Source: Candidatus Iainarchaeum sp.
GTDB taxonomy: Archaea > Iainarchaeota > Iainarchaeia > Iainarchaeales > JAZDDZ01
NCBI GenBank assembly: GCA_043809245.1
Contig: JAZDDZ010000007.1
Coordinates: forward strand, 14,434-78,433
Reading direction: 5' to 3'
DNA: 64,000 nt
In this document: positions 36,352-62,543 of the stretch, in pieces
Layout: every line of letters starts with the position of its first letter
Position numbering within the stretch: position 1 is the first letter of the stretch
Notes under the pieces: model-generated
Seen by the model: only the letters and a program-made list of their open reading frames with translations
Told to the model about the DNA's origin: nothing
Database searches by the model: none
Program-made: the position numbers and the translations under genes

Positions 36352-37380
36352 TCAAAGCTCCAGGAATTTCGCGGTTGTTTTCTCCCTGTATTCCGGAAAG
36401 TTAACCATGCACTGGCCGGTGCAGTAAGGGAATCTTTTGAAGTCTTTCTCTATTTTTTTGTGGATTTCTTTGATGTCTTCATTCCAGATGTTGCCGTAAG
36501 AGTAAGGCACCGGGGGGCAGGGGGTTACTTCGCCGTTTGGAAGGATGTTTACGTGAAGGTTTCCCATTCCCCTGCATAAGCCTGATTCCTTTTTGAATTC
36601 CACGGCAAGCTTGTCTGAAGCATTGAACCTGTTTCTCAGTTCATTCCTTTCCTTTGGCGAAAGGTTTTTTTCAAATGAATTGAATAGCCTTCCTGAAAGG
36701 ATTGGAAGGAAAACAAAAACCCTTTTAACGCCAAGCCTTTGCCCAAGGGATTCAAGCTTTTCCAGCTTGTTTTTTTCGCCTTTCATTGCAAAACTCCATA
36801 TCTCGGTGTTCAAGCCGAGCGCAGCCGAGGACTTAATTCCTGAAACAGCCTTTTCAAACAAGCCGGGCATTCCCCTGTTTGAATCATGCTCTTTGCTTTC
36901 CGCGCTGTCAAGGGAAAAAATCATGAGGAAAATTCCCGCCTTTTTCAGGCTTTCAAGGGTTTCGGGGGAAACAGTTGAGCCGTTGGTTACTATTGCCGGA
37001 AGCAGGCCCAAAGATTTTGCGTATGAGACAAGTTCAAGGGCGTCAGGCCGTAAAAGGAATTCCCCGCTGCAGAACACGACAATGCATGCGTGAAGCCGCA
37101 GGATTTTTTGCATGGCTTCCTTTGCCTGTGCAGTTGCCATATAGTCCTGCATTTTTTCCCTTTCGGGGAAAAGCTCATAGCAGTGCATGCACTTCAGGTT
37201 GCATTGCCTTGAAGGGGAAAGGAACACTGAGAAAAGACGCTGCATTCCGAGGAATTTCGCGGCATTGAATTTCAGTACGCGCGTTTTTTGCCTTGAATCA
37301 AGGCCCTTTAAGAAAAGCGCCTGCAACGCGGTTATTGTGTCGCCTGGAAAGCTGTCTTCCTTGGAATTGAAAAAGCCCAT
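36352..37380 (-). CDS. Radical SAM enzyme with a twitch/partial-SPASM C-terminal domain
   Basis: CNLKCMHCY (CX3CX2C) near the N-terminus. C-terminal CRGMGNLHVNILPNGEVTPC fits CX13GX4C, followed by YCTGQC. Confidence 0.85.
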   Translation of the reverse strand: MGFFNSKEDSFPGDTITALQALFLKGLDSRQKTRVLKFNAAKFLGMQRLFSVFLSPSRQCNLKCMHCYELFPEREKMQDYMATAQAKEAMQKILRLHACIVVFCSGEFLLRPDALELVSYAKSLGLLPAIVTNGSTVSPETLESLKKAGIFLMIFSLDSAESKEHDSNRGMPGLFEKAVSGIKSSAALGLNTEIWSFAMKGEKNKLEKLESLGQRLGVKRVFVFLPILSGRLFNSFEKNLSPKERNELRNRFNASDKLAVEFKKESGLCRGMGNLHVNILPNGEVTPCPPVPYSYGNIWNEDIKEIHKKIEKDFKRFPYCTGQCMVNFPEYREKTTAKFLEL

Positions 37381-37450
37381 TTTCCTGCCTTAGATAGTTT
37401 TCTTTAAGAAATCAATTTAAATTATTGCAACCATAGTTCATCTTGGTTGG

Positions 37451-38215
37451 ATGGGGTTCAGGACTTTATTGTACGAGGCCATTGGAAGCACTGGCTTGGT
37501 TTACTTCAACAGGCCTGAAAAGATGAATTCGTTCAACAGCCTTATGGTAAGGGAAACAAGGGAGCTTGCAGAAAAGCTGAAAGCGGATGAAAGCATAAGG
37601 TCTGTTGTAATCAGCGGAAAAGGCAGGGCTTTTTCAACAGGAATTGACCTAAAGGAAATGAGTGGATTGGGCAGGAAAGATTTCGGCAAATTAGTCAAAA
37701 GCGCAACAACCGCGTTCCTTGATTTCATGGGAATGCACAAGCCCGTAATCGCGGCTGTGAATGGCTATGCGTACGGTGGCGGCGCGGAAATAGCGATAAA
37801 CTGCGATTACGTTATAGCGGCAAGCAATGCCTCGCTTTGTTTTCCGGAAATAAATTTTGGATACGTGCCTTTTCTGGGCTCAATCCACAAGCTGCATGAA
37901 TTGGCAGGAAAGCAGAGGGCAAATGAACTGGTCATGCTTGGAAAAAAAATCAATGCGAAAAAAATGCGTGAAATGGGAATTGCAAACGAAGTTACAGGGA
38001 AAAAAAACCTAATCAGGCGCGCGCTTCAGGTCGCCCAGGAAATGAACAAAAAGCCTTTGGGGGCAATGAGCGGCGTTAAAAGGCTTGTGAGAAAAAGGGA
38101 AAGGAAAAAAATTTCAGCTGCGATAGCGGAAGAGCAGATGCTTTTCTGGGAATGCTATGAAAGCAATGAGTGGAAAAAGGAAGCGGAAAAATTTCTGGGA
38201 AGGGAAAAAAAATGA
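37451..38215 (+). CDS. Enoyl-CoA hydratase/isomerase (crotonase) family protein
   Basis: GLVYFNRPEKMNSFN, VVISGKGRAFSTGIDLKE and AAVNGYAYGGGAEIAINCDYVIA are crotonase-fold oxyanion-hole motifs. Confidence 0.85.
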   Translation: MGFRTLLYEAIGSTGLVYFNRPEKMNSFNSLMVRETRELAEKLKADESIRSVVISGKGRAFSTGIDLKEMSGLGRKDFGKLVKSATTAFLDFMGMHKPVIAAVNGYAYGGGAEIAINCDYVIAASNASLCFPEINFGYVPFLGSIHKLHELAGKQRANELVMLGKKINAKKMREMGIANEVTGKKNLIRRALQVAQEMNKKPLGAMSGVKRLVRKRERKKISAAIAEEQMLFWECYESNEWKKEAEKFLGREKK

Positions 38216-39192
38216 AGGCAGCGGGAATTTCCGGAACAGGCTCTTATCTCCCGGAAAGAATTGTTTCAAACAAGGAGCTTGAAAAATCGCTTGACACAAG
38301 CGATGAATGGATTTGGAAGCACATAGGCATAAGGGAAAGGAGGTTCGCGGAAAAAAACCAGCCGACATCGCATCTCTCGCTTAAGGCCGCTGAAAAGGCA
38401 TTGAAGGCAGCGGGAACAAGCGCGGAAGAGCTTGACCTGATAATAGTTGCAACCGCATCCCCGGACATGCCCACGCCGAGCACTGCATGCATTCTGCAGG
38501 ACAAGCTCAAGGCAAACAAGGCAGGGGCATTTGACTTGAACAATGCATGCACTGGATTTGTTTACGGATTGGCTGCTGGAGCCAAATTCATTGCGGATGA
38601 AAGCTGCAAAAAAGTTTTATTGGTGGGAGCGGAAACACCGCACGCGTTCATGGACCCAAAGGACCGCGGAACATATGTTTTTTTCGGTGACGGCGCAGGA
38701 GCGGTTGTGTTAAGCGAAACAGAGAAAGGAAGGGGCGTGCTTGGAAGCTATCTGAGAAGCGACGGCTCAGGCGCAATGGATTTGGGCGTGCCCGGGGGAG
38801 GCACAATGATGCCGCCGTCAATTGAAACAATCAAGAACAGGCAGCACTTCATTAAAATGAACGCGCAAAAAATAAAGGAATTTGTAATAAAAGCGTTTCC
38901 GGATTCAGTGCACGGAACCCTGCGCAATGCGGGTTTAAAGCTGGAGGACGTGGACATGATTATTCCGCACCAGGCGAACGCGCGGCTCATAGAATACGGA
39001 ATGAAAGCATTGGGATTGCCAATGGAGAAAGCCTTCATTAACATGCACAAGTACGGCAACACAATTGGAGCTTCAATTCCCATTGCATTGGATGAAGCCG
39101 TTCACGAAGGAAAGATAAGCAAGGGGGACCTTGTTTTGCTTGTGGGATTCGGAGGAGGCTTAAGCTGGGGCGGAGTAGCATTAAGGTGGTAG
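38212..39192 (+). CDS. fabH: Beta-ketoacyl synthase III (FabH/KAS III family), copy 1
   Basis: Cys-His-Asn triad motifs: DLNNACTGFVYGL, IPHQANARLIE, HKYGNTIGASIPIAL. The ATG at 38212 overlaps the crotonase TGA (ATGA). Confidence 0.88.
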   Translation: MKAAGISGTGSYLPERIVSNKELEKSLDTSDEWIWKHIGIRERRFAEKNQPTSHLSLKAAEKALKAAGTSAEELDLIIVATASPDMPTPSTACILQDKLKANKAGAFDLNNACTGFVYGLAAGAKFIADESCKKVLLVGAETPHAFMDPKDRGTYVFFGDGAGAVVLSETEKGRGVLGSYLRSDGSGAMDLGVPGGGTMMPPSIETIKNRQHFIKMNAQKIKEFVIKAFPDSVHGTLRNAGLKLEDVDMIIPHQANARLIEYGMKALGLPMEKAFINMHKYGNTIGASIPIALDEAVHEGKISKGDLVLLVGFGGGLSWGGVALRW

Positions 39193-39193
39193 G

Positions 39194-39937
39194 ATGAATG
39201 AATTCTCTGGAAAGGTTGCAATAGTCACAGGAGCTTCTGGCGGAATAGGGAAAGCGATTGCCGTGGCTTTAGGGGAACAAAAGGCAAAAGTAGTGGTGAA
39301 TTACAACGGCAATGCATTGGGGGCAAATGAAACAAAGGCGGAAATAGAAAAGCTTGGGGGAAAGGCAATTGCGGTTAAAGCTGATGTAAGCAAGCCGGCT
39401 GAAGTTGAAAAAATGGTTGAAGCCGCGGTAAAGGAATTCGGCGGCATTGATTTTTTGGTGAACAATGCGGGAATCACCGCGGATGCAACTCTGAAAAACA
39501 TGCGCGCGGAGCAATGGAACAGGGTAATGGAAACAAACTTGAACGGCACATTTAACTGCACCAAGGCAGTGCTTCCGTTAATGCTGGGAAAAGGAAAGGG
39601 AAGCATTGTAAACATTTCATCAATAAGCGGCAGCAGGGGAAGCTTCGGGCAATGCAATTATTCCGCGGCAAAGGCCGCGGTCATTGGCTTCACGAAATCG
39701 GTTTCAAGGGAAACCGCGGGAAAAGGCGTTAGGGTCAACGCCATATGCCCCGGCTATGTCAAGACAAAAATGACTGAATCGGTTCCAAAAGAATTGATTG
39801 AAAAATTTGTGGAAATGATTCCAATGAAAAGGCCAGGAACAACCGGGGAAATCGCGGAAGCAGTTCTATTTTTTCTTTCAGAAAAATCAAGCTACATCAG
39901 CGGGCAGGCGCTGAATGTCGACGGCGGATTCATGTAA
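39194..39937 (+). CDS. fabG: 3-oxoacyl reductase, FabG-like short-chain dehydrogenase
   Basis: TGASGGIGKAIA, NNAGI and YSAAKAAVIGFTKS (YxxxK) motifs. Starts 2 nt after the KAS III gene ends. Confidence 0.9.
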   Translation: MNEFSGKVAIVTGASGGIGKAIAVALGEQKAKVVVNYNGNALGANETKAEIEKLGGKAIAVKADVSKPAEVEKMVEAAVKEFGGIDFLVNNAGITADATLKNMRAEQWNRVMETNLNGTFNCTKAVLPLMLGKGKGSIVNISSISGSRGSFGQCNYSAAKAAVIGFTKSVSRETAGKGVRVNAICPGYVKTKMTESVPKELIEKFVEMIPMKRPGTTGEIAEAVLFFLSEKSSYISGQALNVDGGFM

Positions 39938-39949
39938 AGGTGCAATGAA

Positions 39950-40561
39950 ATGCCAAAGGTCGTTGGAATAAACGGAAGCGCAAACAAAAAAGGCAACACT
40001 TTTTTCCTGTTGAATGAATGCATTGAGTCGGCAAAGGAAAACGGCATGGAAACAGAACTGCTTCAGCTAGCTGAATTCAATGTAAAGCCATGCGACCACT
40101 GCCTTGAATGCGTTAAGGGAAAAAAATGCCCAATAAAAGACGATTTTGCAAAAATTGAAAAAAAAATGATTGAAGCTGATGCGATAATTTTTGCAACGCC
40201 TGTTTACTCCGCGGGAATCTCACAGGCAATGAAGAATATAATGGAGAGAAGCTATCCCTTAAGGCTCGGGGGGCTAAAGCTTAAGGACAAATTCGCTTCA
40301 TTCATATGCATGGGCGGCCTTGTGCATGGCTTCCAGGAGCTGGCGGCACTTGAACTCAATGCGTTCGCGCTATACCATGGAATGCTTGTATTCGGAAACG
40401 CTGCATTCGAAGACCCCTTGAAGCCTTATTCAATGGGGCCTTTTGTAATCGGCTCACAGCAAAGGGACGACGGCCTGATGCATTTCGTGAAAAAAGACAA
40501 TTATGCGGTTGAAGGCGCGAAAGCGCTTGGAAAAAGGGCCGCGGAGCTTTTGAAAAAATAA
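39950..40561 (+). CDS. Flavodoxin-fold NADPH-dependent FMN reductase / iron-sulfur flavoprotein (Isf-like)
   Basis: VVGINGSANKKGNTFFLL N-terminus and a compact Cys cluster, CDHCLECVKGKKC (CX2CX2CX5C), as in Isf proteins. Confidence 0.7.
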   Translation: MPKVVGINGSANKKGNTFFLLNECIESAKENGMETELLQLAEFNVKPCDHCLECVKGKKCPIKDDFAKIEKKMIEADAIIFATPVYSAGISQAMKNIMERSYPLRLGGLKLKDKFASFICMGGLVHGFQELAALELNAFALYHGMLVFGNAAFEDPLKPYSMGPFVIGSQQRDDGLMHFVKKDNYAVEGAKALGKRAAELLKK

Positions 40562-40981
40562 TCAGCCGATGAACTTGTCGGTTGAAGTTTCCACAAGAAC
40601 AGTTTCCCCAAACTGGTTCCTGAATTCTGTTGAAAAAACAGCAATCCTTTTTTTCCCTATCTTTTCAATGCACTCAATTGTCGCGGTGATTGTGTCGCCT
40701 GCCTTAACCGGCTTTAAGAACCTGACCTTTTGCTTCATGTAAACATAGCCTGAACCGGGGAGCTTTGAGGAAGCAAGGTCGCTTAACAATGCAATTAGAA
40801 GAGCTCCGGGCACAATCGTTTCCCGGAAAATTGTTTTTTTGGCAAAAGCCAAGTCATTATGGATCGGGTTGCTGTCGCCTAGAAGGCGGTTTGATTCACG
40901 CACATCCTTTTCAGTGAAAGTGCGGGTGGTTGAAGCGGTTTGCCCTATCTTGAGCTCATCAAAAGGAATTTCCGCATTCAT
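40562..40981 (-). CDS. MaoC-like (R)-specific enoyl-CoA hydratase/dehydratase, hotdog fold
   Basis: FTEKDVRESNRLLGDSNPIHNDLAFAKKTIFRETIVPGALL is the MaoC dehydratase signature. Confidence 0.8.
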   Translation of the reverse strand: MNAEIPFDELKIGQTASTTRTFTEKDVRESNRLLGDSNPIHNDLAFAKKTIFRETIVPGALLIALLSDLASSKLPGSGYVYMKQKVRFLKPVKAGDTITATIECIEKIGKKRIAVFSTEFRNQFGETVLVETSTDKFIG

Positions 40982-41443
40982 TCATTTCACCATCAGATCG
41001 CTTAACAGCTTTTCAGTGGAAGAAATCGAAACCAGCAGTTCGCCCCTGCTATTTCTTATCTCTGTTTTGTCACTGAAGCGCCTTTTTTCAAGGTCAACTG
41101 AAACAATTTCACGGGTGATTAACAGCTCATCATCAATCCTTGCGGGTTTCAAAAAATTCGCCTCATAGCTTAAGGCAACTGAGTTTACGCCGTTAAGCGG
41201 ATACGCGCTTGCCGCAATGCCAAGCAAATGCATTCCGTGAAGGATTCTTGAGCGAAAAATTGTTTTGGAGCAATAAGCTTCATCCAAATGCAGCCTGTTG
41301 AAATCACGGCTTAATTCCGCGTAACGCCTTACCCCGCTTTCGCTGACCTTTTTCTTCAGGGAAAATTTTTGGCGGGGCTTCAGCTGCTCAAGCGACAGAA
41401 TATGCGAAGTGCTTTCTCCAGCCATAATTAAACTTGCGCCCAA
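40982..41443 (-). CDS. MaoC-like hotdog-fold protein (second subunit or paralogue)
   Basis: YAELSRDFNRLHLDEAYCSKTIFRSRILHGMHLLG. Directly abuts the downstream MaoC gene (40981/40982). Confidence 0.7.
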   Translation of the reverse strand: MGASLIMAGESTSHILSLEQLKPRQKFSLKKKVSESGVRRYAELSRDFNRLHLDEAYCSKTIFRSRILHGMHLLGIAASAYPLNGVNSVALSYEANFLKPARIDDELLITREIVSVDLEKRRFSDKTEIRNSRGELLVSISSTEKLLSDLMVK

Positions 41444-41460
41444 AAATTCTTTTAATAAGA

Positions 41461-42516
41461 ATGCACGAATCTCAGCTTATGGGAAGCCTGAAAGAAGGTT
41501 ACAGTTATTGCCGCTACGAAAAAGGAGACGGGAAAGGAATAAACCGGCTAATAAATGAAGCGTTTAAAGGGAAAAGGGAGAAGGGCTACTTTGAATGGCA
41601 GTATTTGGAAAATCCAGCGGGAAAGCCTGAGATAAGGCTGTTGAAGGAAAGCCACAACGAAACAGTAGGGCACGCCGCGGCAATTCCCCTGGCATTCAGT
41701 TTTTTCGGTGAAAGGAAAAAATTTTTACAGGGAATGGACGGCGCGCTTGCAGCCAATGCGAGGGGAAAAGGGCAATCAAGGCCTTTCTTTGAAAAATTCA
41801 TGGAAGAGGTTTCAGGCAAAACCGAAGTCTACTTTCTTTTTCCCAACAAGGCACACTTTGAGAGGATAAAAAATCAGCAGGGCTTCAGGCACAAGCCGCT
41901 TTATAGGCTGGTTAAGCCATTGGATTCAACCGCAATTTTGGGAAAAATTTCCAGAAACAAAAGTTTCACCAGGCTTATGAAGCCTTTGGGGGATGTGCTG
42001 TTTAAAGTTTTTTTTCCGCTGAAAAAAGCAGCGCTTGAAGAAGGCGAGGAAATAAAAAAAATTGAAAAATTTGATGAACGGGCTGATGTGCTGTGGGAAA
42101 AAACCAAAAGCGGGAAAAAAATAATTGCTGAAAGGAAAAAGGATTTTCTCAACTGGAGGTATTTCGGCGGAGTGAAGAAATACGAAGCGTTTTCTTTGGA
42201 AAATGCGGGCGCAATGGAAGGGTACATTGTTTTCGCACAGGACGGAAAAACAGGGAACTTTGCTGACCTCGCTGCAACAGGCAAAAAAGCAGGGGAAAAA
42301 CTTCTCTCGCATGCGCTTGAATATCTCGCGGGAAAAGGGTGTGAAGCGGCTTTCTTTTACACGCTTGACGATGCGCTAAAGGAAAGACTGAAGAAAGCAA
42401 GTTTCATTGAAACAAAAACAGACGCCTATTTTTCTTTCATTAAAACAGGCGGAATTGAAAGGGAAATAAGCGCAGATGACTGGTTCATTAACCTCGGGGA
42501 CAGCAACCAGGTTTAA
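41461..42516 (+). CDS. GNAT-family acyl/acetyltransferase (two-domain, ~352 aa)
   Basis: FEWQYLENPAGKP...VGHAAAIPLAFSFFG...GMDGALAANARGKG resembles the GNAT acetyl-CoA-binding region. I prefer the ATG at 41461 because the 41434 alternative start overlaps the divergent MaoC gene. Confidence 0.55.
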   Translation: MHESQLMGSLKEGYSYCRYEKGDGKGINRLINEAFKGKREKGYFEWQYLENPAGKPEIRLLKESHNETVGHAAAIPLAFSFFGERKKFLQGMDGALAANARGKGQSRPFFEKFMEEVSGKTEVYFLFPNKAHFERIKNQQGFRHKPLYRLVKPLDSTAILGKISRNKSFTRLMKPLGDVLFKVFFPLKKAALEEGEEIKKIEKFDERADVLWEKTKSGKKIIAERKKDFLNWRYFGGVKKYEAFSLENAGAMEGYIVFAQDGKTGNFADLAATGKKAGEKLLSHALEYLAGKGCEAAFFYTLDDALKERLKKASFIETKTDAYFSFIKTGGIEREISADDWFINLGDSNQV

Positions 42517-42525
42517 GGTGAAAAA

Positions 42526-43341
42526 ATGTGCGCAAAAATCATTGACACTATGGCTTCCTGGATTTACTCCAAGCCATTGCTGAGAAAAAAATGGTACGGT
42601 TATCTTTCAAGGCTTGACCGTGAAGGGCAGGTTACCTTCATGAACCTAGGCTATGCAGGCATCGGCGCGGAAAAAGGAATGCCCGTGGAAAAAAAAGGAG
42701 AACATGAAAGCTACGGAGAGCTGCTGTACAATCGCGTTGCAGGCAACGCAAAACTTTGTGGGCTTGATGTTTTGGAGATTGGCTGCGGAAGGGGCGGAGG
42801 CGCAGCATACACAATGAAAAAATTCATGCCAAAAAAAATGGTTGCAGCAGACCTTTGCAAAGAGGCAATTGATTTCTGCAAAAAAAATTATGAAATTAAA
42901 GGGCTTTCATTTGAAAGGGAGGACGCGCAGAAATTAAGCTTTGCAAACAGCTCTTTTGATTCGGTTCTAAGCGTTGAATCATCGCACGGCTATGCGTCAA
43001 TGGAAAAATTTCTCAGGGAAGTTAACAGGGTGCTGAAGCAAGATGGGTGCTTTTTGTTCGCTGATTTCAGGGGAAAAAATGAATTGAAAAAACTGCACGC
43101 GCAAATGGAGCGCGCGGGATTTGAATTTGAAAAACAGGAAATGATAACAGAGAATGTAGCCAAAGCGATTGAACTTGACAGCGAAAGGAAACAGGCGCTG
43201 ATTGAAAGGCTTGTGCCAAAGCGGCTGAGAAAGCCTTTCGTGCTGTTTGCGGGAATAAAGGGCACGCCAATGCATGAAGCACTGGTTAAAGGCGAAATTG
43301 AATACGTGAGCGCAGTTCTGCGGAAAACAGAAGCGCCCTGA
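42526..43341 (+). CDS. Class I SAM-dependent methyltransferase
   Basis: Motif I VLEIGCGRGGGAAY, an acidic loop (MVAADL) and FDSVLSVESSH. Confidence 0.85.
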   Translation: MCAKIIDTMASWIYSKPLLRKKWYGYLSRLDREGQVTFMNLGYAGIGAEKGMPVEKKGEHESYGELLYNRVAGNAKLCGLDVLEIGCGRGGGAAYTMKKFMPKKMVAADLCKEAIDFCKKNYEIKGLSFEREDAQKLSFANSSFDSVLSVESSHGYASMEKFLREVNRVLKQDGCFLFADFRGKNELKKLHAQMERAGFEFEKQEMITENVAKAIELDSERKQALIERLVPKRLRKPFVLFAGIKGTPMHEALVKGEIEYVSAVLRKTEAP

Positions 43342-44395
43342 GAAAAAAATCCTTCAAACCGCTGCCTGAAAAAAGCATTGTTTTCCTCTGCGTTGTTTTT
43401 GCGCCCCGCAGTTTTTTTGTTTCAATGTCTGATGAAAGCAAATTTAGTTTGCTAAAGCCGTTGTCGAACGCAAAGCGAAGCGGCGCATAATAGCTTGTCT
43501 CGAAAAAAGCGAAGTTTCCGCCAGGCAAAGCCCCGGAGCCGCTTGAAAAAAAGGTGAGCTCCCTGTTCCCTGCGAAATAAAGCGAAAAACACAAAATCGA
43601 GCCGTTTTTTTCAGCCAAAAAGAAACGCGCTTTTTCCCCCATGTTTCCCTGTATTGAACGGAAAAATGATTCAGTGAAGGGGCTTTTGCAGCCGTTGTGC
43701 TTAAAGAATGTGTTGTCCGCGAGTGATGAAAGCAGGCCGCTGCCCTCGAAGGAAATGGAAGAAAAGAACCTTGTTCCAGAGGCCTTGTTTGCATTCATCT
43801 CCTTTATTACTTTCTGCCTGCGATTTTTAGAAAGGCTTGAAAGAAACGCATCAAAAGAAGCCGCACTGCAGTCTATCTCAGCGCAGTCAAATGCTCCCTT
43901 TGAATAAAAGCCGTTATTTGAAAGCAGGGATTCAAGCAGAGCGCCTTTACCTGAAACATAAGGCGCTGCAATGAACTGGTTTTTTTTGCGTGCCTTTTCC
44001 TTAATTGCTTCAAGCGCAAGGGAAAAAAGTTTTTCACGGTCTGCCGAAAATGCCGAGTTGACCAAGAATCGCGATTCAAGGCAGTAAGGGGAAAAAACGC
44101 TTAAGTAAGAGTTGTCTTTGAATCCGAGAAAGCGGAAAAAAGGGGAAAGGGTTCCGAGTGTTTTTGAAAAGGGAATGAATTCCGCGCCATGCATTTCATA
44201 GCAGGGAAGGAACGCGGCAAGGGTTTTGCCTGAGAAAACCGCGGCATGCATTGGCTTGGCTGGAAGGCACGCCGCTTCCTCTATTGCCTTGAACCATTCA
44301 AATGAAAAAAAAAGGGAATCGCTTAAAGGGTTAAGCTCTTTACTTTCCAGTTCGCTTATTGAAGCCAAAAGCCTTACTGAAAAATTTTTTTCCAT
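43286..44395 (-). CDS. GNAT-fold FemAB/BioF2-like acyl- or aminoacyl-transferase (tentative)
   Basis: 369 aa. The N-terminus (SFEWFKAIEE) and C-terminal half (RFFLAEKNGSILCFSLYFAGNRELTFFSSG) recall FemAB-like/BioF2-like transferases found in polysaccharide loci. Last gene of a tightly packed six-gene minus-strand operon. Confidence 0.45.
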   Translation of the reverse strand: MEKNFSVRLLASISELESKELNPLSDSLFFSFEWFKAIEEAACLPAKPMHAAVFSGKTLAAFLPCYEMHGAEFIPFSKTLGTLSPFFRFLGFKDNSYLSVFSPYCLESRFLVNSAFSADREKLFSLALEAIKEKARKKNQFIAAPYVSGKGALLESLLSNNGFYSKGAFDCAEIDCSAASFDAFLSSLSKNRRQKVIKEMNANKASGTRFFSSISFEGSGLLSSLADNTFFKHNGCKSPFTESFFRSIQGNMGEKARFFLAEKNGSILCFSLYFAGNRELTFFSSGSGALPGGNFAFFETSYYAPLRFAFDNGFSKLNLLSSDIETKKLRGAKTTQRKTMLFSGSGLKDFFLRALLFSAELRSRIQFRL

Positions 44396-44398
44396 AAA

Positions 44399-45298
44399 TC
44401 ATTTCCCCGCGGATTTAACTTTTTCAAAAAACGCTTTTCTTTTTTTCAGCATTTTCGGCAGCAATGGAAGCGCGGAAAATTTTCCCTTGATGAATGGAAT
44501 GCCTTCCCCAAAGTAAAAGTTTCCAGCCAACTCTGAAAAAAAATCAGCCAAAATGAACGGCAGCCTTGAAAAAAATTCCCCCGCGCGCAAATTCTTGAAA
44601 ATAACAAGAAGGCTGTTCCTTGAAATAAGAAAGGGGCGCATTGACCCCATTCCGCGCGTTGTTGCAGACCCTTCATGGACCGCAACCGCTTTTTCTGCAA
44701 AAGCACAGCGCCAGCCCAAGCGCCTTGCCCTCAAGCCGATGTCGCAGTCCTCGTGGTAAATGAAAAAATCATTGTCATAGATTTCGCCTGAAACGCTTAT
44801 TTCTTCAAGCATTTTTTTGCGCCACAGGCACGCGCCGTCATCAGGGCAGAAAACCTTTGAGGCATCATACGTTGGAACAAGCCTGAAGCCACGGAGCAAT
44901 TCAAGGCCAACACACTCAATTTTTCCTGAAGAAAAAAAACGCGTGCATGAAACCATTCCAATGCGTTCATCTGACCCTGCCGCATTAAGCATATGCCTAA
45001 GATAATCTTTATGCAGCACAACGTCGTTGTTAACTGTTGCAATGAATTCGCCTTTGGATGCCGCGATTGCCTGGTTGTTTGCAGCGCAGAAACCCAGATT
45101 TGATTTGTTTTTTATGAGCCTGGCTGATGGAAAATTTTTTTCAATGAATTCAGCAGAGCCGTCGCTTGAGCCGTTGTCCACAGCAATTACTTCAAAATCA
45201 CTGAATGACTGCGCTTGAATCGCTTCAAGGCATTTGCCAATCCGTCCAATGCCATTAAGGTTAACGACAACGAATGAAACAAGCGGGTCCACTGTCAA
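44399..45298 (-). CDS. Family 2 glycosyltransferase
   Basis: VSFVVVNLNG, FEVIAVDNGSSDGS and a DXD-like TVNNDVV motif. The TTG start overlaps the upstream stop. Confidence 0.85.
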   Translation of the reverse strand: MTVDPLVSFVVVNLNGIGRIGKCLEAIQAQSFSDFEVIAVDNGSSDGSAEFIEKNFPSARLIKNKSNLGFCAANNQAIAASKGEFIATVNNDVVLHKDYLRHMLNAAGSDERIGMVSCTRFFSSGKIECVGLELLRGFRLVPTYDASKVFCPDDGACLWRKKMLEEISVSGEIYDNDFFIYHEDCDIGLRARRLGWRCAFAEKAVAVHEGSATTRGMGSMRPFLISRNSLLVIFKNLRAGEFFSRLPFILADFFSELAGNFYFGEGIPFIKGKFSALPLLPKMLKKRKAFFEKVKSAGK

Positions 45299-46299
45299 AA
45301 AAGCACTCTCCTGAATTTAATGGCAGCCAAAAAAGTGAAAAAAAGCTCTGCAAAGGCGACAAGCCAAACCACGAAAAAAGACGAGGCAAGTGAAAAGGGA
45401 TGGAAAAAAACTCTTTTCATAGAAGCGCCCTGCTTGAGCCTAGTGTTAAGAAAAACCGAGAGAGAGTAGAATGCAAGCAAAACCAATGCCCTTAAAAAAA
45501 ACGGGTAAGGGAAAAAAAGAAAAAATGCAAGGGAAAAATAAAAGGGGTAATTCGGCACTAGAACAGGGTTGAATAAGCCAAGGAAAGCGCGCTCCTTTGC
45601 ATAAACTAAAGGGTGTTTTGCCGCGAGCAAAACATTCCAGTAAGAGGTTTTCAGGTTAAGGCGCTTTGAAAGGAATGAGAATGCATTGGAGGGAATAACG
45701 GAATGGAAAACAAGCGAGCCGGGGGAAAATTTTATGATGAATTTTTTTTCTTTTGCACGCCAGGCAAGGTCAGTGTCCTCGCACATCGGAGAGGAAAAAA
45801 CAGGGTCAAAGCCCCCAAGCGAATCAAAGCAGGGCTTTGAATAAAAAATATTGCAGGTAAGAAAGTTTCCGCCTGAAAGGTTCTCGCACTGGAAGGAAAT
45901 TGCGCAGACTTTTTCGGGAGAAGCAATTTTTGTAGCGCCCTCAACGATGTCAACTTTTTCTTTCAAAAAGATTTTTTTTGCGGAGGAAAGCCATTCAGAA
46001 TCCGCAGTGCAGTCGTCATCAATGAACGCGAGAATTTTCCCTTTTGCGGCTGCAGCGCCCGCGTTGCGCGCTGCCGCGGGCCCCTTGTTTTCCTGCCTGA
46101 GAAAAGCCAGGGAAAAGCGCGGTGAAAAAGAGGCAAGGGATTCATGCAATGGTTTTCTTGAGCCGTCATCAACAACAATCACTTCAAATTCATTTGGAGG
46201 AATGCTTTGCCTTTCAAGCGATGAAAGGCAGTTGAAGAGAAGCTCGGCGCGGTCCTTTGAGGGAATCACCACGCTGAAAAAAGGCGCTTTTTCAGGCAT
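45295..46299 (-). CDS. Family 2 glycosyltransferase with C-terminal membrane helices
   Basis: FFSVVIPSKDRAELLFNCLSSLERQS, FEVIVVDDGS and FIDDDC motifs. Hydrophobic C-terminal ~110 aa. Confidence 0.85.
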   Translation of the reverse strand: MPEKAPFFSVVIPSKDRAELLFNCLSSLERQSIPPNEFEVIVVDDGSRKPLHESLASFSPRFSLAFLRQENKGPAAARNAGAAAAKGKILAFIDDDCTADSEWLSSAKKIFLKEKVDIVEGATKIASPEKVCAISFQCENLSGGNFLTCNIFYSKPCFDSLGGFDPVFSSPMCEDTDLAWRAKEKKFIIKFSPGSLVFHSVIPSNAFSFLSKRLNLKTSYWNVLLAAKHPLVYAKERAFLGLFNPVLVPNYPFYFSLAFFLFFPYPFFLRALVLLAFYSLSVFLNTRLKQGASMKRVFFHPFSLASSFFVVWLVAFAELFFTFLAAIKFRRVLF

Positions 46300-47451
46300 T
46301 CAGTTTTCACCCAAAATTTTTTCGTAAAAGGAAAGTGTTTTCTGGGAAATTTTGCCCCAATCAAATTCTTCCAGGCCAGAGGAAGCGCTTATTGAAAGCC
46401 TTTTCCTCAAGGCGCTGTCTTCCGCGAGCAGGGAAATTTTTTCCGCAATCGCTTCAGCGGTTAAAGGGACAACAAAGCCGTTTTCGCCTTCGCGCACCAA
46501 ATCAGAGGCAGCATTGCCAGCGTGAGCAACAGTTATCAGCGGCAGCCCACAGGCAAGGGATTCAAGCGAGGAAATGCTGAAGCCCTCGCGAGTTGAAGGA
46601 AGAACTGAAACACCGCAGGATTTAAGGAAAGAGAACAACTGCAGCTTTTCTGGAAAAAAATCAAGAAAGGAAACACTGTTGGAAATGTTTAGGGAAGATG
46701 CGAGTTTCACCAGTTTTTCCTTTTCAGGGCCATTGCCTATTATCGCCGCGGTCTGCGTTATCCCTTTTTCTTTCAGTATGGCTACTGCTTTCAAAAGCAA
46801 ATCAAGGTTTTTGTGCTTCGCAAGGCGGCCGAAAAAAACCAGGTCAGCGCCTTTGCCGGAAGGCAATGCCTCTTTTACCGCCGTGAAGTCAAATCCGTTC
46901 TCCATAAGCTCGATTTTTTCAGGGGGAATTCCGAGAGTGGAAAGATTCGATGCAACGCGTTTTGAGCCGGCCATGTTGTGTTCCGAGAAAGCCGCTGCAA
47001 GCCTTTCCGTTGCGGATCCGGCAAAGCCAGCCGGGCCGAGATAGCTGAGCCAGTATCGCAGGCCCCAGACCTCCTGCCACATCACGGCAAGAGGAACTGA
47101 ATTCTTATCCGCAAAGCGTTTCGCGGGAAAAAAGGGAAGGAATGGAAAGGCATTGCAGTCAATCACGTCAAACTTTTTTCCATTAAGTGCGCTGCGGAGT
47201 GCGAGGGAAAATTTTAACGGCTCCACAATTGTCCTTTTCCCGGAAAAATTGTAAATTCCGCGGTAAGAGCAGATGCCATGATAATTGATGCCGTCAAGAA
47301 AAAGGTCTTTTTCGCCTTGCCAGCACTTGGATGAAAAAAAATGAATCTCGTGCCCTTGTGCTGCAAGGCGTTTTCCGATTTCATAGTTGCGCAATTCCCC
47401 GCCCCCCACAACAAAGGGATATGCGAGGTCGTAAATGAATGCGATTTTCAT
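46300..47451 (-). CDS. GT-B glycosyltransferase (GT4/Glycos_transf_1 family)
   Basis: MKIAFIYDLAYPFVVGGGE N-terminus and the EGFSISSLESLACGLPLI (EX7E region) motif. Confidence 0.88.
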   Translation of the reverse strand: MKIAFIYDLAYPFVVGGGELRNYEIGKRLAAQGHEIHFFSSKCWQGEKDLFLDGINYHGICSYRGIYNFSGKRTIVEPLKFSLALRSALNGKKFDVIDCNAFPFLPFFPAKRFADKNSVPLAVMWQEVWGLRYWLSYLGPAGFAGSATERLAAAFSEHNMAGSKRVASNLSTLGIPPEKIELMENGFDFTAVKEALPSGKGADLVFFGRLAKHKNLDLLLKAVAILKEKGITQTAAIIGNGPEKEKLVKLASSLNISNSVSFLDFFPEKLQLFSFLKSCGVSVLPSTREGFSISSLESLACGLPLITVAHAGNAASDLVREGENGFVVPLTAEAIAEKISLLAEDSALRKRLSISASSGLEEFDWGKISQKTLSFYEKILGEN

Positions 47452-48137
47452 GAAAAGCGCGCCCCCAAAATAAAGAAAAAATGCTTTAAGCCGTCCCGCA
47501 AGGAATTCATTTTTGAAACCCCTGAACGCGCGGAATAAGTGATTGGAACCTCTGAGATTTCAAGTTTTTGCTTTTTAGCATTCACAAGCATTTCCAATGC
47601 GAACTGCATTCCCAACTGCCTGAACTCGGCTTTCTCCAGAAAAGACTTTTTGAACGCGCGGAAGCCGGAGTGGGTGTCGGAAAGTGAAGAGGAAAAAAAA
47701 AGATTGAAAACAAATGTGAGCAAAGGGTTGCCAATGAATTGGTGCAGGGGCTTCATTGCGCCTGGCGCAATTTTTCCCTTGAAGCGCGAGCCGATTACAA
47801 AATCAGCAGAGCCGGAGTCAATTGGCGAGAGAAGCGATGGAATTTCGGAAAAATCGTAAGTGCCGTCTGAGTCGGCCATCACAATTGTTTCACCTTTCGC
47901 TTCATTGAAGCCAAGGAGATATGCCGCGCCGTAGCCGCGCACGTTCTGGTGCAAAACCTTGACGCCCAAAGCGCGCGCTATTTCAGCCGAGCCATCATTT
48001 GAGCCGTTGTCCACGACAATGATTTCGCCGTTGATTGCATTGGCCCGTAAAACGGATTTTATTTTCTCAATGCAGCGGGAAATGGTTGGCTGTTCGTTAA
48101 GGCAGGGAAGAACGACTGAGACAAATTTTTGGTTCAT
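47448..48137 (-). CDS. Family 2 glycosyltransferase (polyprenyl-phosphate sugar synthase-like)
   Basis: VSVVLPCLNEQPTI, IVVDNGSNDGS and MADSDGTYD (DXD) motifs. Confidence 0.85.
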   Translation of the reverse strand: MNQKFVSVVLPCLNEQPTISRCIEKIKSVLRANAINGEIIVVDNGSNDGSAEIARALGVKVLHQNVRGYGAAYLLGFNEAKGETIVMADSDGTYDFSEIPSLLSPIDSGSADFVIGSRFKGKIAPGAMKPLHQFIGNPLLTFVFNLFFSSSLSDTHSGFRAFKKSFLEKAEFRQLGMQFALEMLVNAKKQKLEISEVPITYSARSGVSKMNSLRDGLKHFFFILGARFS

Positions 48138-48139
48138 GC

Positions 48140-49240
48140 TTAATGGAATTTTTTCCCGAAAAGCTTAACTGCATTAATAACGCGTGAAACCTCGGCAGCG
48201 GAAAGGGCGGGGTGCAGGGGAAGCGAGAGAATGCGCTTCCATTCGCGCATTGCCACAGGAAGGTTTGCGTGCGGAAATTTTTTGTAAAAAGAGAAAAGCG
48301 GCAGGGGCTTGTAGTAAACAGTGGATTCTATTTCCTTGGAGCGCAGGAATTCGGATAATGCATCGCGCTTTCCGTTCAAAACCTTTAAAGTGTAACAGTA
48401 ATTTGAACTTTTAACGTGTTTTCTCTGCTCCAATGGTTCAAGCCAGCCAAGCGAAGAAAAAGCCTCATCGTATTGGCGCGCTATTTCCGCGCGCCTTTTG
48501 TTCATGAATTTGAGCTTTTTCAGCTGCTCTAAGCAGATTGAGGCGTCAATGTCGTTCATCTGAGCCTTGAAGCCTAACTGCTTCACATTGTAAGATAAAA
48601 AATCCTTTTCGCGCTCAACGCCCAGAAAGCGAAGCCGTTCAAGCGCAGGCTTTAGCGAAGCGCGGCTGAAGCATATTGCCCCTGCATCGCCGGCTGAAAT
48701 GTTTTTTCCGCCGCGAAAAGAAAAACAGGAAGCCGCGCCAAAAGAACCTGCTTTTTTTCCACGGAACTCTGCGCCGGTGGCGTGCGCGCAGTCCTCAACC
48801 AATGGAATTCCATTGCGCTTTGCGATTTTTTTGAATTCATTCATCTCGCAGCAGTGGCCGCGGTAATGCACCAAAAGAATCGCCTTTGTGCGGGGGGAAA
48901 TTTTTTCCTCAACCGCGGAAGGGGAAAGGTTTAATGTGCCGGGCTCAACGTCAGCGAAAACAGGCTTTGCACCCGCAAAAATAATCGCGTGCGCAGTTGA
49001 AACAAAAGTCATTGGAGTGGTTATCACCTCTGAGCCTTTAACGCCCCGGGCTTCAAGCGATAAATGCAGCGCGGAAGTGCATGAATCGGTTCCCAAGGCA
49101 AAGCGCGTGCCGATAAAGCTTGAGAATTTTTTTTCGAATTCCCTTGTTTTAGGGCCGGAGATGATGTAACGGCTTTTCAGCACGCGTGCGACTGCCTTTG
49201 CTTCCCTTGAATCGAAAAACGGCTCTGAAAGGCGGATCAT
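48140..49240 (-). CDS. DegT/DnrJ/EryC1-family sugar aminotransferase (second copy)
   Basis: ISGPKTREFEKKFSSFIG, GTDSCTSALHL, FSFRGGKNISAGDAG and LSLPLHPAL motifs. Confidence 0.9.
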   Translation of the reverse strand: MIRLSEPFFDSREAKAVARVLKSRYIISGPKTREFEKKFSSFIGTRFALGTDSCTSALHLSLEARGVKGSEVITTPMTFVSTAHAIIFAGAKPVFADVEPGTLNLSPSAVEEKISPRTKAILLVHYRGHCCEMNEFKKIAKRNGIPLVEDCAHATGAEFRGKKAGSFGAASCFSFRGGKNISAGDAGAICFSRASLKPALERLRFLGVEREKDFLSYNVKQLGFKAQMNDIDASICLEQLKKLKFMNKRRAEIARQYDEAFSSLGWLEPLEQRKHVKSSNYCYTLKVLNGKRDALSEFLRSKEIESTVYYKPLPLFSFYKKFPHANLPVAMREWKRILSLPLHPALSAAEVSRVINAVKLFGKKFH

Positions 49241-49300
49241 GAAATGAATGGGAAGCGATAATTATAAGTGGGTTTCCGTGAAAAAAATTGTTGTGGAAAA

Positions 49301-50239
49301 ATGTTTTCGGAAATAAAAGGCATCGGGGCGCATTTGCCCGGGAAGGAATTGGACAACGAGGAAGTAATTGCAATAAAGGGCATTGACACCTCTGACAAAT
49401 TCATCAGGGAAAGGTTCGGCGTGCAAAAGAGAAGGGTTATTGAAGGCGGTGAAAAGAATTCTGATTTGGGCGCGGAAGCGCTGAAAAAAGCAGCAGAGAA
49501 AGCGGGAATCACGCTGAAAGAAATTGACGCGATTGTCTGCGCGACAATGACTCCTGAAAAGCCCTCGCCGAGCACTGCGTGCATAATCCAGGGAAAACTT
49601 GGATTAAAGGGAGTGCCTGCATTTGATGTGAGCGCTGCGTGCTCAGGCTTTGTTTATGGATTGGATTCCGCTGCAAGAATGGTTTCGGGAGGGGAATACA
49701 AAAACATTGCGCTGGTTGCAACGGAAACAATGAGCAAAATAGTTGACTGGAGTGACAGGGTTGTATGCCCGGTTTTCGGGGACGCAGGAACCGCAACGAT
49801 TGTAAGCCATTCGAAAAAAGAAAAAGTGCTTGCAACACACTTAACTGCTGACGGCGGGGGAAGCGGCGTGCTGCACGTTCCCGAGAATGAAAAATTTTTG
49901 CGGATGAACGGAAAGGACGTGTATGAATTCGCGGTAAAGCTTTTCCCTGAAACAGCGAGAAAAACCGTGAAAAAAGCAGGAATCGGATTAAAGGACATTG
50001 ACTGGGTTTTCCCGCACCAGGCAAACATCAACATCATAAGGGATGGAATGAAAGAGCTTGGCTTGGGAATGGAGAAAACGCATTTGAACATGCAAAAATA
50101 CGGCAACACCGCCGCTGCGTCAATTCCGCTTGCAATAGAGGAAGCGGAAAGAATCGGAAAGGTTAAGAAAGGCGATTTGCTTTTGTGCGTTGGATTCGGC
50201 GCGGGATGGAGTGCAGGGGGCGCGGTGGTTGAGTGGTGA
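49301..50239 (+). CDS. fabH: Beta-ketoacyl synthase III (FabH/KAS III family), copy 2
   Basis: DVSAACSGFVYGL, FPHQANINIIR and QKYGNTAAASIPLAI (Cys-His-Asn triad). Roughly 40% identical by eye to copy 1. I prefer the ATG at 49301. Confidence 0.88.
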   Translation: MFSEIKGIGAHLPGKELDNEEVIAIKGIDTSDKFIRERFGVQKRRVIEGGEKNSDLGAEALKKAAEKAGITLKEIDAIVCATMTPEKPSPSTACIIQGKLGLKGVPAFDVSAACSGFVYGLDSAARMVSGGEYKNIALVATETMSKIVDWSDRVVCPVFGDAGTATIVSHSKKEKVLATHLTADGGGSGVLHVPENEKFLRMNGKDVYEFAVKLFPETARKTVKKAGIGLKDIDWVFPHQANINIIRDGMKELGLGMEKTHLNMQKYGNTAAASIPLAIEEAERIGKVKKGDLLLCVGFGAGWSAGGAVVEW

Positions 50240-50242
50240 GCG

Positions 50243-50590
50243 TTAACGCCTATTTTTCTTCTGCTTTTTTGCTGCCGCAATTGCAACAACTTTCTGTTTC
50301 GGCGAAGTCGCCTCAATTAACCCGATTTCCAGGTTGATGATGTTTTTTACAACAGGGCTTTCAAGGTTGACTGTGTAAAGGCGCGTGTTGCCGAAAGCGC
50401 GCGTCTGCTTTACAATGCCGCTTTCCTCCAATTTGCCCCAGTGCGCGAAAAGCGCGCCCTTGCTTATGCAGGAAAGCTCTTGAATCTCTTTTTTGGAAAA
50501 ATCCGAGCCAACATTGTCAATGAACGCATCCACTATTTTAATGAAAGGCGAAGCGCCAAAAAATTTCACGAGGTTTGATTCGTCAGGCAT
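50243..50590 (-). CDS. Winged-helix transcriptional regulator
   Basis: 115 aa. FSKKEIQELSCISKGALFAHWGKLEESGIVKQTRAFGNTRLYTVN is an HTH plus wing; basic tail. Confidence 0.6.
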   Translation of the reverse strand: MPDESNLVKFFGASPFIKIVDAFIDNVGSDFSKKEIQELSCISKGALFAHWGKLEESGIVKQTRAFGNTRLYTVNLESPVVKNIINLEIGLIEATSPKQKVVAIAAAKKQKKNRR

Positions 50591-50644: not shown

Positions 50645-50923
50645 ATGGACCTCTCTTCCGATGCCTTTTTGCGCGCAAAAATCCTTTTCAGGCTTGCGAG
50701 GAAAAGGAAATGGGGGCACTCGCACACGGCATTTGACAACCTGAAAATGGGATTCAAACCGCGCGAGCATGGAAAGGTGAAAGAATTGGCGGAAACGCTG
50801 ATTAAGGAAGGGCTGATTTTAAGGAAGCCGACAGGTTATGGCCTTCATGTATCGCTGAACCATGAAAGGGCACAGGAAATAAAGCAGATAATTAAAAATA
50901 TGCTGGGTCGGCTTATTGAATGA
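50645..50923 (+). CDS. Small basic protein, possible winged-helix DNA-binding protein
   Basis: 92 aa. GKVKELAETLIKEGLILRKPTGYGLHVSLN resembles a recognition helix plus wing. Weak call. Confidence 0.4.
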   Translation: MDLSSDAFLRAKILFRLARKRKWGHSHTAFDNLKMGFKPREHGKVKELAETLIKEGLILRKPTGYGLHVSLNHERAQEIKQIIKNMLGRLIE

Positions 50924-59371: not shown

Positions 59372-59419
59372 TGGAAATGCATATCATTTTAGGGGAGAAT
59401 TTTCAGGGGGTGGCTTTGA

Positions 59420-61620: not shown

Positions 61621-61646
61621 AAGGCTCCGGAAAAAAAGTGAAATGA

Positions 61647-62537: not shown

Positions 62538-62543
62538 AAAAAA

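Follow-up and report, generated by a model that had tools for sequence, protein, structure and literature searches.

A 64-kb stretch of DNA from Candidatus Iainarchaeum sp. (contig JAZDDZ010000007.1), referred to here as the window, was analysed, and the gene set of interest was located at 36352-50239. This region encoded two 3-ketoacyl-acyl carrier protein synthases III (KAS III) and other homologues of fatty acid synthesis (FAS) enzymes, interspersed with glycosyltransferases (GTs) and a sugar aminotransferase, next to genes for a polytopic membrane protein and a giant surface protein. Annotation was based on a map of open reading frames (ORFs) and on Pfam and NCBIfam scans of the window ORFs; the Pfam scans took in the non-overlapping ORFs from 70 amino acids (aa) upwards, except for the middle third of the giant ORF (~19428-29560) and a 123-aa ORF at 63623-63994. 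Every gene that an earlier note on this DNA had listed was recovered at its position. The window also carried archaeal housekeeping genes (an A-type ATPase subunit with an intein, subunit D, PGK, cupin-type GPI and GAPDH) as well as archaeal-type pilus genes. The features discussed below are as follows (position, strand, product and basis of the call).

14428-34560, minus: giant surface protein, 6710 aa, with Laminin_G_3, Big_3_3, Big_13 and CARDB domains (Pfam)
34704-36320, minus: polytopic membrane protein with a predicted GT-C fold (AlphaFold2 (AF2) and Foldseek; no Pfam match)
36352-37380, minus: radical S-adenosylmethionine (SAM)/SPASM enzyme (Pfam; no equivalog-level match in NCBIfam)
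37451-38215, plus: crotonase-type enoyl-CoA hydratase (ECH; ECH_1 E=5e-51)
38212-39192, plus: KAS III #1, a FabH-type condensing enzyme (NCBIfam FabH subfamily, 385 bits; cutoff 249)
39194-39937, plus: FabG/acetoacetyl-CoA reductase-like short-chain dehydrogenase/reductase (SDR), a 3-ketoacyl reductase (adh_short_C2 E=2e-71)
39950-40561, plus: Isf-type iron-sulfur flavoprotein (FMN_red, PF03358, E=6e-30)
40562-40981, minus: MaoC_a, a hotdog-fold (R)-specific enoyl-CoA hydratase/dehydratase (Pfam; GDSNPIH motif)
40982-41443, minus: MaoC_b, a hotdog protein with the variant motif RDFNRLH (Pfam)
41479-42516, plus: GNAT protein (Acetyltransf_9), 345 aa, with a second, weak GNAT-like half (Pfam, 26.0 bits against a cutoff of 25)
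42526-43341, plus: class I SAM-dependent methyltransferase (Pfam)
43286-44395, minus: FemAB_like protein (PF04339, E=1.6e-17)
44399-45298, minus: glycosyltransferase GT2a (Pfam)
45295-46299, minus: glycosyltransferase GT2b, with two C-terminal transmembrane (TM) segments (Pfam)
46300-47451, minus: GT4 glycosyltransferase (Pfam, NCBIfam)
47448-48137, minus: short soluble GT2, AglJ/dolichyl-phosphate hexose transferase-like (AglJ 157 bits, below the cutoff of 325)
48140-49240, minus: DegT/PseC/ArnB-like pyridoxal phosphate-dependent sugar aminotransferase (DegT E=5e-108)
49268-50239, plus: KAS III #2, transcribed divergently from the DegT operon (NCBIfam FabH subfamily, 344 bits; cutoff 249)

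The ECH, FabH, FabG and Isf genes formed one operon of tightly packed genes in which the ECH stop and the FabH start overlapped by 4 nt. KAS III #2 probably begins at the ATG at 49301. The radical SAM/SPASM gene lay upstream of the GT-C and giant-protein genes on the same strand. At two points, genes of opposite strands met closely: there was no spacer between the Isf and MaoC_a genes (40561/40562), and the 3′-ends of the methyltransferase and FemAB-like ORFs overlapped convergently by 56 nt (43286-43341).

Related loci and the KAS III clade

The core cassette, together with DegT, GT2 and GT4 genes, recurred on two further archaeal contigs (loci L001 and L002), one of which is labelled Candidatus Iainarchaeum (DPANN). 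Both loci encoded, in order, a large surface protein, an unannotated protein of ~555 aa, ECH (L002 only), FabH, FabG and Isf, followed by two to three MaoC genes on the opposite strand, an Acetyltransf_9 GNAT, a Wzx-type flippase, a Fer4 protein, a B12-radical SAM enzyme, DegT, GT2 and GT4. The surface-protein slot was occupied by a large Laminin_G_3 protein in L001 and, in L002, by a large protein that is truncated at the end of the contig and gave no Pfam match. As the core order recurred on independent contigs, the grouping is not a chance juxtaposition. Identity to L001 and L002 was highest for KAS III #1 (65% and 62%), FabG (60%) and Isf (51% and 64%), and lower for DegT (45-47%), MaoC (37-41%), GT2a (38%), the GT-C protein (30-31%) and GNAT (26%). 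The crotonase had an orthologue in L002 (40% identity) and none in L001, and a GT4 gene occupied the corresponding position in both. The radical SAM/SPASM enzyme, the methyltransferase, the FemAB-like protein and KAS III #2 were specific to the window; L001 and L002 carried the B12-radical SAM gene beside DegT rather than a radical SAM/SPASM gene.

Both window KAS III enzymes contained the ACP_syn_III and ACP_syn_III_C domains and scored above the curated FabH-subfamily cutoffs of TIGR00747 and NF006829 (249 and 292 bits), KAS III #1 with 385 and 357 bits and KAS III #2 with 344 and 322 bits. The Cys112-His244-Asn274 triad was intact in both, as in the L001 and L002 orthologues, which excluded a KAS III-like acyltransferase identity. 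The earlier note had called the two genes paralogues; both are present, but with an identity of just 41% they are not recent paralogues, and a recent duplication was ruled out. A 13-aa insertion in KAS III #1 relative to the FabHs of the PDB was set aside as a special feature, as it is also found in Firmicutes homologues.

A search of 5.8 billion proteins returned only two close relatives of KAS III #1 (65% and 62% identity), both on archaeal contigs from metagenome-assembled genomes (MAGs). The next-best matches after these two archaeal orthologues were Firmicutes-type FabHs with ~55% identity, and both KAS III enzymes nested with metagenomic bacterial-type sequences, which agrees with the bacterial ancestry put forward in the earlier note.

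The KAS III sequences were aligned to Escherichia coli FabH and compared with 117 bacterial housekeeping homologues, which were the top matches. In FabH, we take K214, R249 and K256/K257 to be the acyl carrier protein (ACP)-docking patch and R36 to be a CoA contact. Position 36 was R in 111/117 of the bacterial homologues and in KAS III #2, and H in each of the three KAS III #1 orthologues. At position 214, K was found in 111/117 homologues, E, G and D in the KAS III #1 orthologues (E in the window) and E in KAS III #2. Position 249 was R in 111/117 homologues; the KAS III #1 orthologues had R, N and N (R in the window) and KAS III #2 had N. Position 257 was K or R in 114/117 homologues, A, K and R in the KAS III #1 orthologues and E in KAS III #2, in which W32 was additionally replaced by Phe. 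The basic docking patch and R36 were consequently not retained: of the four archaeal enzymes, each had K214 replaced, three had R249 replaced, and the three KAS III #1 orthologues had R36 replaced. Six metagenomic KAS III sequences shared a D214 substitution, and five of the six had N249.

A neighbour-joining tree (50 taxa, 324 columns, 100 bootstraps) supported the archaeal KAS III #1 trio at a bootstrap value of 93. The trio, the six metagenomic sequences and KAS III #2 formed a clade apart from the housekeeping FabHs (bootstrap 80), of which KAS III #2 was the basal member (bootstrap 80). None of the clade members with readable context lay in a fab operon; the normal FabH used as a control (locus L021) does sit in one. 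Three members (P0009, P0036 and P0078) were on contigs too short for their context to be read. The bacterial polysaccharide locus L010, which holds the clade members P0024 and P0052 as two tandem KAS III genes, also encoded four GT4 enzymes, a Bac_transf protein, two GFO_IDH_MocA proteins, a 3-hydroxyacyl-CoA dehydrogenase, an Acetyltransf_9 GNAT, a hexapeptide transferase and a second GNAT, and no ACP was found in it. The L010 Acetyltransf_9 GNAT was related to that of the window (tblastn E=8e-20); the contig ends before any DegT. In locus L009, a clade member adjoined CoA-transferases, a DegT-like aminotransferase and a B12-radical SAM enzyme. In archaea and bacteria alike, this KAS III clade is thus accompanied by sugar genes, CoA enzymes and members of this GNAT family.

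The ACP was sought with a small ACP profile, with the HMMER filters off, in all stop-to-stop frames of at least 35 aa. None was found in the window or in loci L001-L020, the best match (E=0.24-0.34) lying inside KAS III #2. The same profile recovered acpP of the L021 fab operon (plsX-fabH-fabD-fabG-acpP-fabF) with E=1.5e-23. No ACP was thus found in five independent loci with this KAS III clade (the window, L001, L002, L009 and L010). The Pfam scans of the window ORFs returned no PP-binding, ACPS/Sfp, AMP-binding, FabD, KAS I/II, FabI, FabK or FabV match, in agreement with the earlier note, in which no ACP, phosphopantetheinyl transferase (PPTase), acyl ligase or FabI/K/V-type reductase had been seen in the window. 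FabZ/A was likewise not found in the window, and a complete type II FAS set was not present within the 64 kb.

Taken at the level of sequence, these comparisons support a CoA-based rather than an ACP-based activity for the KAS III clade, in which basic residues at the presumed ACP/CoA-binding face are eroded. The CoA-based synthesis suggested in the earlier note is supported by the lack of an ACP in the window, L001, L002 and L010, by the replacement of K214, R249 and R36, and by the 3-hydroxyacyl-CoA dehydrogenase that L010 uses.

Accompanying enzymes and the GT-C membrane protein

The FabG-like SDR scored about equally against the FabG equivalog (285 bits, below the cutoff of 296) and the acetoacetyl-CoA reductase models (262 bits). 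Its Ser-Tyr-Lys triad was kept, and the equivalent of E. coli FabG R129, presumably an ACP-binding residue, was Gly in all three orthologues (window, L001 and L002). The crotonase contained both catalytic Glu motifs (GGGAE and FPEINFG). MaoC_a had an intact D-x-N-P-x-H catalytic motif (GDSNPIH), and MaoC_b, in which the variant DFNRLH keeps the Asp and His and has lost the Pro, is the probable partner subunit of MaoC_a. L001 and the window each had two MaoC genes; a third MaoC-like ORF in L002 (8463-8870, minus strand) was without D-x-N-P-x-H. A polyhydroxyalkanoate pathway was dismissed, as there was no PhaC.

The Isf class is, as we understand it from the Methanosarcina Isf literature, defined by an FMN_red flavodoxin-like domain with a compact CX2CX2CX4-7C motif. 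The corresponding motif of the window protein, C48-x2-C51-x2-C54-x5-C60, was invariant across the three orthologues. The best PDB match, which covered the N-terminal half, was 7D38 (E=6.6e-14), the flavone reductase FLR, a flavin mononucleotide (FMN)-dependent ene-reductase (PMC7862272). The Isf-type flavoprotein may be an enoyl-thioester reductase or an electron donor. A metagenome scan with the Isf alignment gave four distant matches (30-38% identity) in unrelated contexts.

Of the CoA-pyrophosphate motif of GNATs (R/Q-x-x-G-x-G/A), the R95-x-x-G98 part was invariant between the window protein and its relatives, with variation at the last motif position. A five-sequence profile matched only GNAT amine N-acetyltransferases in the PDB, including glucosamine-6-phosphate N-acetyltransferase (E=3.6e-4) and aminoglycoside AAC enzymes. 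The orthologues in L001 and L002 were syntenic yet fast-evolving (26% identity), and a word-indexed homologue search with the window GNAT returned only the self-match. Scanning the GTDB representative genomes with the GNAT alignment recovered only the contig of L001 and one locus of Sporanaerobacter sp. (L004, NZ_CP181252.1), where a GNAT, a PIG-L deacetylase and a GT4 form a trio at 9983-13212. By analogy, this arrangement is reminiscent of mycothiol/bacillithiol-type systems and would be typical of amino-sugar re-N-acylation. A fused ACPS-NAD(P)HX dehydratase gene lay 3 kb upstream of the trio. The window GNAT is proposed to be an acyl-CoA:amino-sugar N-acyltransferase.

The best NCBIfam models for the methyltransferase were phthiotriol O-methyltransferase (196 bits) and fatty-acid O-methyltransferase (182 bits), both below cutoff, and its PDB matches were generic only. 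The FemAB-like protein, for which no PDB relative was found, is possibly a further acyl- or aminoacyl-transferase acting on the glycan. DegT (48140-49240) had PseC-like and ArnB-like NCBIfam matches, both below their cutoffs, and is proposed to make the amino sugar; the AglJ-like GT2 (47448-48137) is proposed to load a sugar onto dolichyl phosphate (Dol-P).

The product of 34704-36320 had ~11 TM helices and a C-terminal soluble domain. The gene probably starts at 36299, since the called product is 531 aa. An exhaustive HMMER search identified 184 relatives; among 30 that were aligned, seven matched DUF6541, four DUF6798 and one PMT_2. An AF2 model built from the 30-sequence alignment (pLDDT 80, pTM 0.85) was compared with the PDB using Foldseek. 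All 27 matches with E<=1e-3 were GT-C enzymes, with TM-scores up to 0.65; the best was yeast STT3 (E=9.7e-10, TM-score 0.64), and human STT3, PglB, Archaeoglobus AglB, DPY19, AftA/AftD, ALG12 and ArnT were also among them. The modelled structure thus shows a GT-C fold, from which the protein is predicted to be a lipid-linked-sugar glycosyltransferase. It resembles the named GT-C enzymes (STT3/AglB/PglB, DPY19, ArnT and AftA) in its predicted fold, in the ~11 TM helices with a C-terminal soluble domain, and in an acidic motif of the first external loop. In the 30-sequence alignment this motif, P35-x-H37-x-D39(-E40) after TM1, was nearly invariant and placed one or more acidic residues in that loop. 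Unlike them, it is assigned to no Pfam family and lacks the WWDxG motif, with just one near-invariant Trp (W419) in the analogous place; identity is 10-15%. Because WWDxG was absent, an STT3-type oligosaccharyltransferase was rejected, and the protein is not a canonical oligosaccharyltransferase.

The GT-C gene lay between the cassette and the large surface protein in each of the three archaeal loci. This fixed position, together with the AglJ-like GT2, suggests that a lipid-linked glycan is transferred outside the cell. The earlier note had considered the surface proteins to be plausible targets, and the placement of a gene for a GT-C-fold enzyme next to the giant protein is in keeping with this. 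By its neighbourhood only, the giant protein is a candidate for the acceptor or for a functional partner; it forms the context of the enzyme set and is not part of it.

After the 6710-aa ORF comes that of a 902-aa CARDB/CarboxypepD_reg protein (11753-14461, minus strand), which has TM segments at its C-terminus; the two ORFs overlap by 34 nt. Past the other side of the giant gene from the cassette, that is, upstream of the giant gene in window order, there is a second amino-sugar set (7526-11653). It comprised an ArnB/PseC-like DegT (10475-11653) that was 38% identical to the DegT of L001 and L002, a hexapeptide (WcaF-like) acetyltransferase (9842-10450), a GT2 (9089-9859) and a 487-aa polytopic membrane protein (7526-8989) with no Pfam match, the Cys-containing C-terminal segment of which fitted the GT-C family profile (hhalign 92%, 29 columns). 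Just downstream of the cluster, a transglutaminase-like/CEP76-peptidase-like protein (50930-51832, minus strand) was found, flanked by small ORFs without Pfam matches at 50243-50590 and 50645-50923. Further out, the A/V-type ATPase catalytic subunit (115-2790, plus strand), whose ORF starts near the window edge, contained an intein that carries a LAGLIDADG homing-endonuclease domain (Intein_splicing residues 183-685, LAGLIDADG_3 residues 457-539). The region 54494-63539 (plus strand) encoded a 914-aa LVIVD-repeat/VWA protein, several proteins without Pfam matches, a T2SSE-type ATPase (60109-61620) and two T2SSF-type membrane proteins, and looks like an archaeal type IV pilus-like locus.

A proposed acylation pathway and its alternatives

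Among O-antigen clusters, with which a comparison had been suggested, the closest described system is wfpC-wfpG of Flavobacterium psychrophilum. Together with pglE/pglF, it is predicted to make UDP-Qui2NAc4N-(3,5-dihydroxyhexanoyl), a bacillosamine-type sugar, using two ketoacyl synthases, an ACP (wfpD), a ketoreductase and a PglD-like acyltransferase (PMC6519341). Like wfpC-G, the window combines two different 3-ketoacyl synthases and a 3-ketoacyl reductase with a sugar aminotransferase and a proposed N-acyltransferase in a glycan locus, a set-up that would leave a short, FAS-like acyl chain in amide linkage to an amino sugar. Whereas wfpC-G has its own ACP and an acyltransferase of the PglD-type left-handed beta-helix, no ACP was found in the window and its proposed acyltransferase is a GNAT; it also adds two MaoC proteins, a crotonase and an Isf flavoprotein, in an archaeal host with a proposed Dol-P/GT-C route.

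NphT7 of Streptomyces sp. CL190 is a KAS III-family acetoacetyl-CoA synthase that uses malonyl-CoA (PMC5509993), and this activity of a KAS III fold on CoA thioesters without an ACP is the one proposed for KAS III #1. NphT7 feeds the mevalonate pathway; the window enzymes differ in belonging to the FabH subfamily and to a separate small clade, NphT7 being compared by description only. With the canonical type II FAS operon (plsX-fabH-fabD-fabG-acpP-fabF) the window shares FabH and FabG homologues, with ~55% identity for KAS III #1 and the same catalytic residues. It differs from that operon in having no ACP, FabD, FabF, FabZ/A or FabI/K/L/V, in its glycan context, and in the replacement of R36, K214 and R249, which are kept in ~95% of housekeeping FabHs.

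The FAS complex of Sulfolobus acidocaldarius, composed of a ketothiolase/DUF35, an SDR, a MaoC-type dehydratase and an MDR enoyl-CoA reductase (bioRxiv 10.1101/2024.07.05.601840), is another archaeal case of CoA-based chain building without an ACP, and likewise has an SDR ketoreductase and a hydroxyacyl-CoA dehydratase. In contrast, the window has horizontally acquired decarboxylative KAS III enzymes, and the only candidate reductase is the Isf-type flavoprotein. The order of steps also recalls the Arn pathway (ArnB, the ArnA N-formyltransferase, the GT2 ArnC and the GT-C enzyme ArnT), in which a DegT-type enzyme makes an amino sugar that is N-acylated in the cytoplasm, a GT2 loads polyprenyl phosphate and a GT-C enzyme transfers the sugar outside; there, however, the acyl group is a formyl that is later removed and the acceptor is lipid A. 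The presence of FabG, FabI and FabZ genes in DPANN MAGs has been noted without context (PMC10936187), and a full-text literature search for DPANN, FabH and fatty acid found no paper. Because the known systems differ in these respects, the ACP-less, GNAT-coupled arrangement with extra reductive steps, in an archaeon and tied to a new GT-C family, is a new combination.

The reading that we favour, with a probability of roughly 55%, is that the gene set encodes a carrier-protein-independent, CoA-based short-chain acyl module of bacterial ancestry that has been built into an archaeal surface-glycan pathway. KAS III #1 would condense acetyl-CoA and malonyl-CoA to acetoacetyl-CoA, as NphT7 does, the FabG-like SDR would reduce this to 3-hydroxybutyryl-CoA, and the MaoC pair would dehydrate it to crotonyl-CoA. 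The crotonase could give the opposite 3-hydroxy configuration by inversion, and the Isf-type flavoprotein would, hypothetically, reduce the enoyl thioester to butyryl-CoA. KAS III #2 could add a second C2 unit to give a chain of up to C6, and the acyl-CoA may be hydroxylated or methylated. DegT would supply a nucleoside diphosphate (NDP)-linked amino sugar, onto the amine of which the GNAT would move the CoA-bound acyl group. Assembly of the glycan on Dol-P would then fall to the AglJ-like GT2 and the remaining GTs, and the GT-C enzyme (34704-36320) would transfer it to the cell exterior, the neighbouring giant adhesin-like protein being the most plausible acceptor. The product is best read as a C4-C6 acyl chain in N-linkage to an amino sugar, shown on a surface glycan. 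As the dehydratases and Isf are conserved in all three archaeal loci, it would be more than a simple 3-hydroxybutanoyl group. The earlier note had already proposed that an acyl group is transferred to an amino sugar; the GNAT family and DegT travel with the cassette, and wfpC-G provides a bacterial precedent (PMC6519341). As far as comparative genomics reaches, the earlier interpretation is supported.

Several points weigh against this proposal. An ACP, a PPTase, FabD or an acetyl-CoA carboxylase could be encoded elsewhere in the genome, beyond the 64-kb window of this 78.7-kb contig; no source of malonyl-CoA was seen in the window. The window KAS III #1 retains Arg at 249 and Lys at 256. Residue roles in the E. 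coli references (FabH and FabG) are assumed, with the numbering checked via the catalytic residues only (FabH C112, H244 and N274), and the neighbour-joining tree was drawn solely from the top 120 matches of one query. The GNAT score (26.0) is barely over the Pfam cutoff of 25, and a single-sequence AF2 model of this protein had a pLDDT of 35. No enzyme making the keto-sugar substrate for DegT was found in the cluster, and no flippase was identified in the window. Finally, the Isf-type flavoprotein could merely reduce the clusters of the radical SAM enzymes.

The first of these points leads to the alternative that survives best, namely an ordinary ACP-dependent O-antigen-type acyl module like wfpC-G, for which the genes of the dedicated ACP, PPTase and malonyl transferase would lie in another part of the genome. 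The window represents just a portion of the genome, the closest described systems do use an ACP (PMC6519341), and the R249 and K256 of KAS III #1, like the FabG score of 285 bits just under the equivalog cutoff of 296, would fit such a module. Dedicated ACPs normally lie inside such clusters, however, and none was found in the five independent loci carrying the KAS III clade; K214 is lost in 4/4 and R249 in 3/4 of the archaeal enzymes, the equivalent of FabG R129 is Gly in 3/3, and the bacterial analogue in L010 employs a CoA-specific 3-hydroxyacyl-CoA dehydrogenase. We regard this alternative as unlikely, though one to be taken seriously.

It is also conceivable that the acyl chain is not an N-acyl sugar decoration but the hydrophobic part of a glycolipid or lipoglycan, or is O-acyl- or peptide-linked, with the GNAT or the FemAB-like protein acylating something other than the DegT product. 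The acceptor is itself a candidate, the GNAT is fast-evolving, and a further acyltransferase-like gene of the window, FemAB_like, is accompanied by one for a methyltransferase similar to lipid O-methyltransferases. These last two genes are, however, not conserved, whereas GNAT and DegT accompany the cassette in three archaeal loci and the same GNAT family stands beside the KAS III pair in L010. Long chains are, moreover, unlikely, because the window has only initiating-type KAS III and no KAS I/II. This explanation seems quite improbable.

Transferred housekeeping lipid synthesis, supplying bacterial-type fatty acids for DPANN membrane lipids, would be in line with the FabG, FabI and FabZ genes of DPANN MAGs (PMC10936187) and with the existence of ACP-independent fatty acid synthesis in archaea (bioRxiv 10.1101/2024.07.05.601840). 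The latter is, though, a thiolase/DUF35 complex and not a KAS III system, the window has no elongating KAS, PlsX/Y/C-type acyltransferase or known enoyl reductase, and the cassette always lies among glycan genes and beside the GT-C enzyme, which makes this origin very unlikely indeed. A catabolic cassette for a beta-oxidation-like use of hydroxybutyrate or short acyl-CoAs, placed among sugar genes fortuitously, is scarcely credible: crotonases, MaoC hydratases and SDRs are known from degradative pathways too, but a KAS III with Cys-His-Asn is a decarboxylative condensing enzyme and not a thiolase, neither an acyl-CoA dehydrogenase nor a thiolase was found, and the GNAT/DegT/GT synteny is kept in three archaeal loci.

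The favoured reading of a CoA-based acyl module in a glycan pathway can be extended to a bolder version. The ACP-free KAS III clade would be a self-contained CoA-based mini-FAS in DPANN with a full condensation-reduction-dehydration-reduction cycle, the Isf-type flavoprotein would be a new class of enoyl-CoA reductase, and the acylated sugar would be put by a new GT-C family on giant host-attachment adhesins. We consider this extension speculative and rather unlikely in full.

If the favoured reading is correct, it would be the first indication that archaeal surface glycans are decorated with FAS-derived acyl groups. It would also represent natural KAS III chemistry freed from ACP, which would be useful for the engineering of CoA-based pathways, and the Isf-type flavoprotein is a testable candidate for a new type of enoyl reductase. 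A family of unannotated membrane proteins, encoded beside the giant surface proteins that presumably mediate cell-cell contact in DPANN archaea, is here given a predicted fold and a likely role. Finally, the presence of bacterial fatty-acid genes in DPANN genomes would not need to imply bacterial-type membrane lipids.

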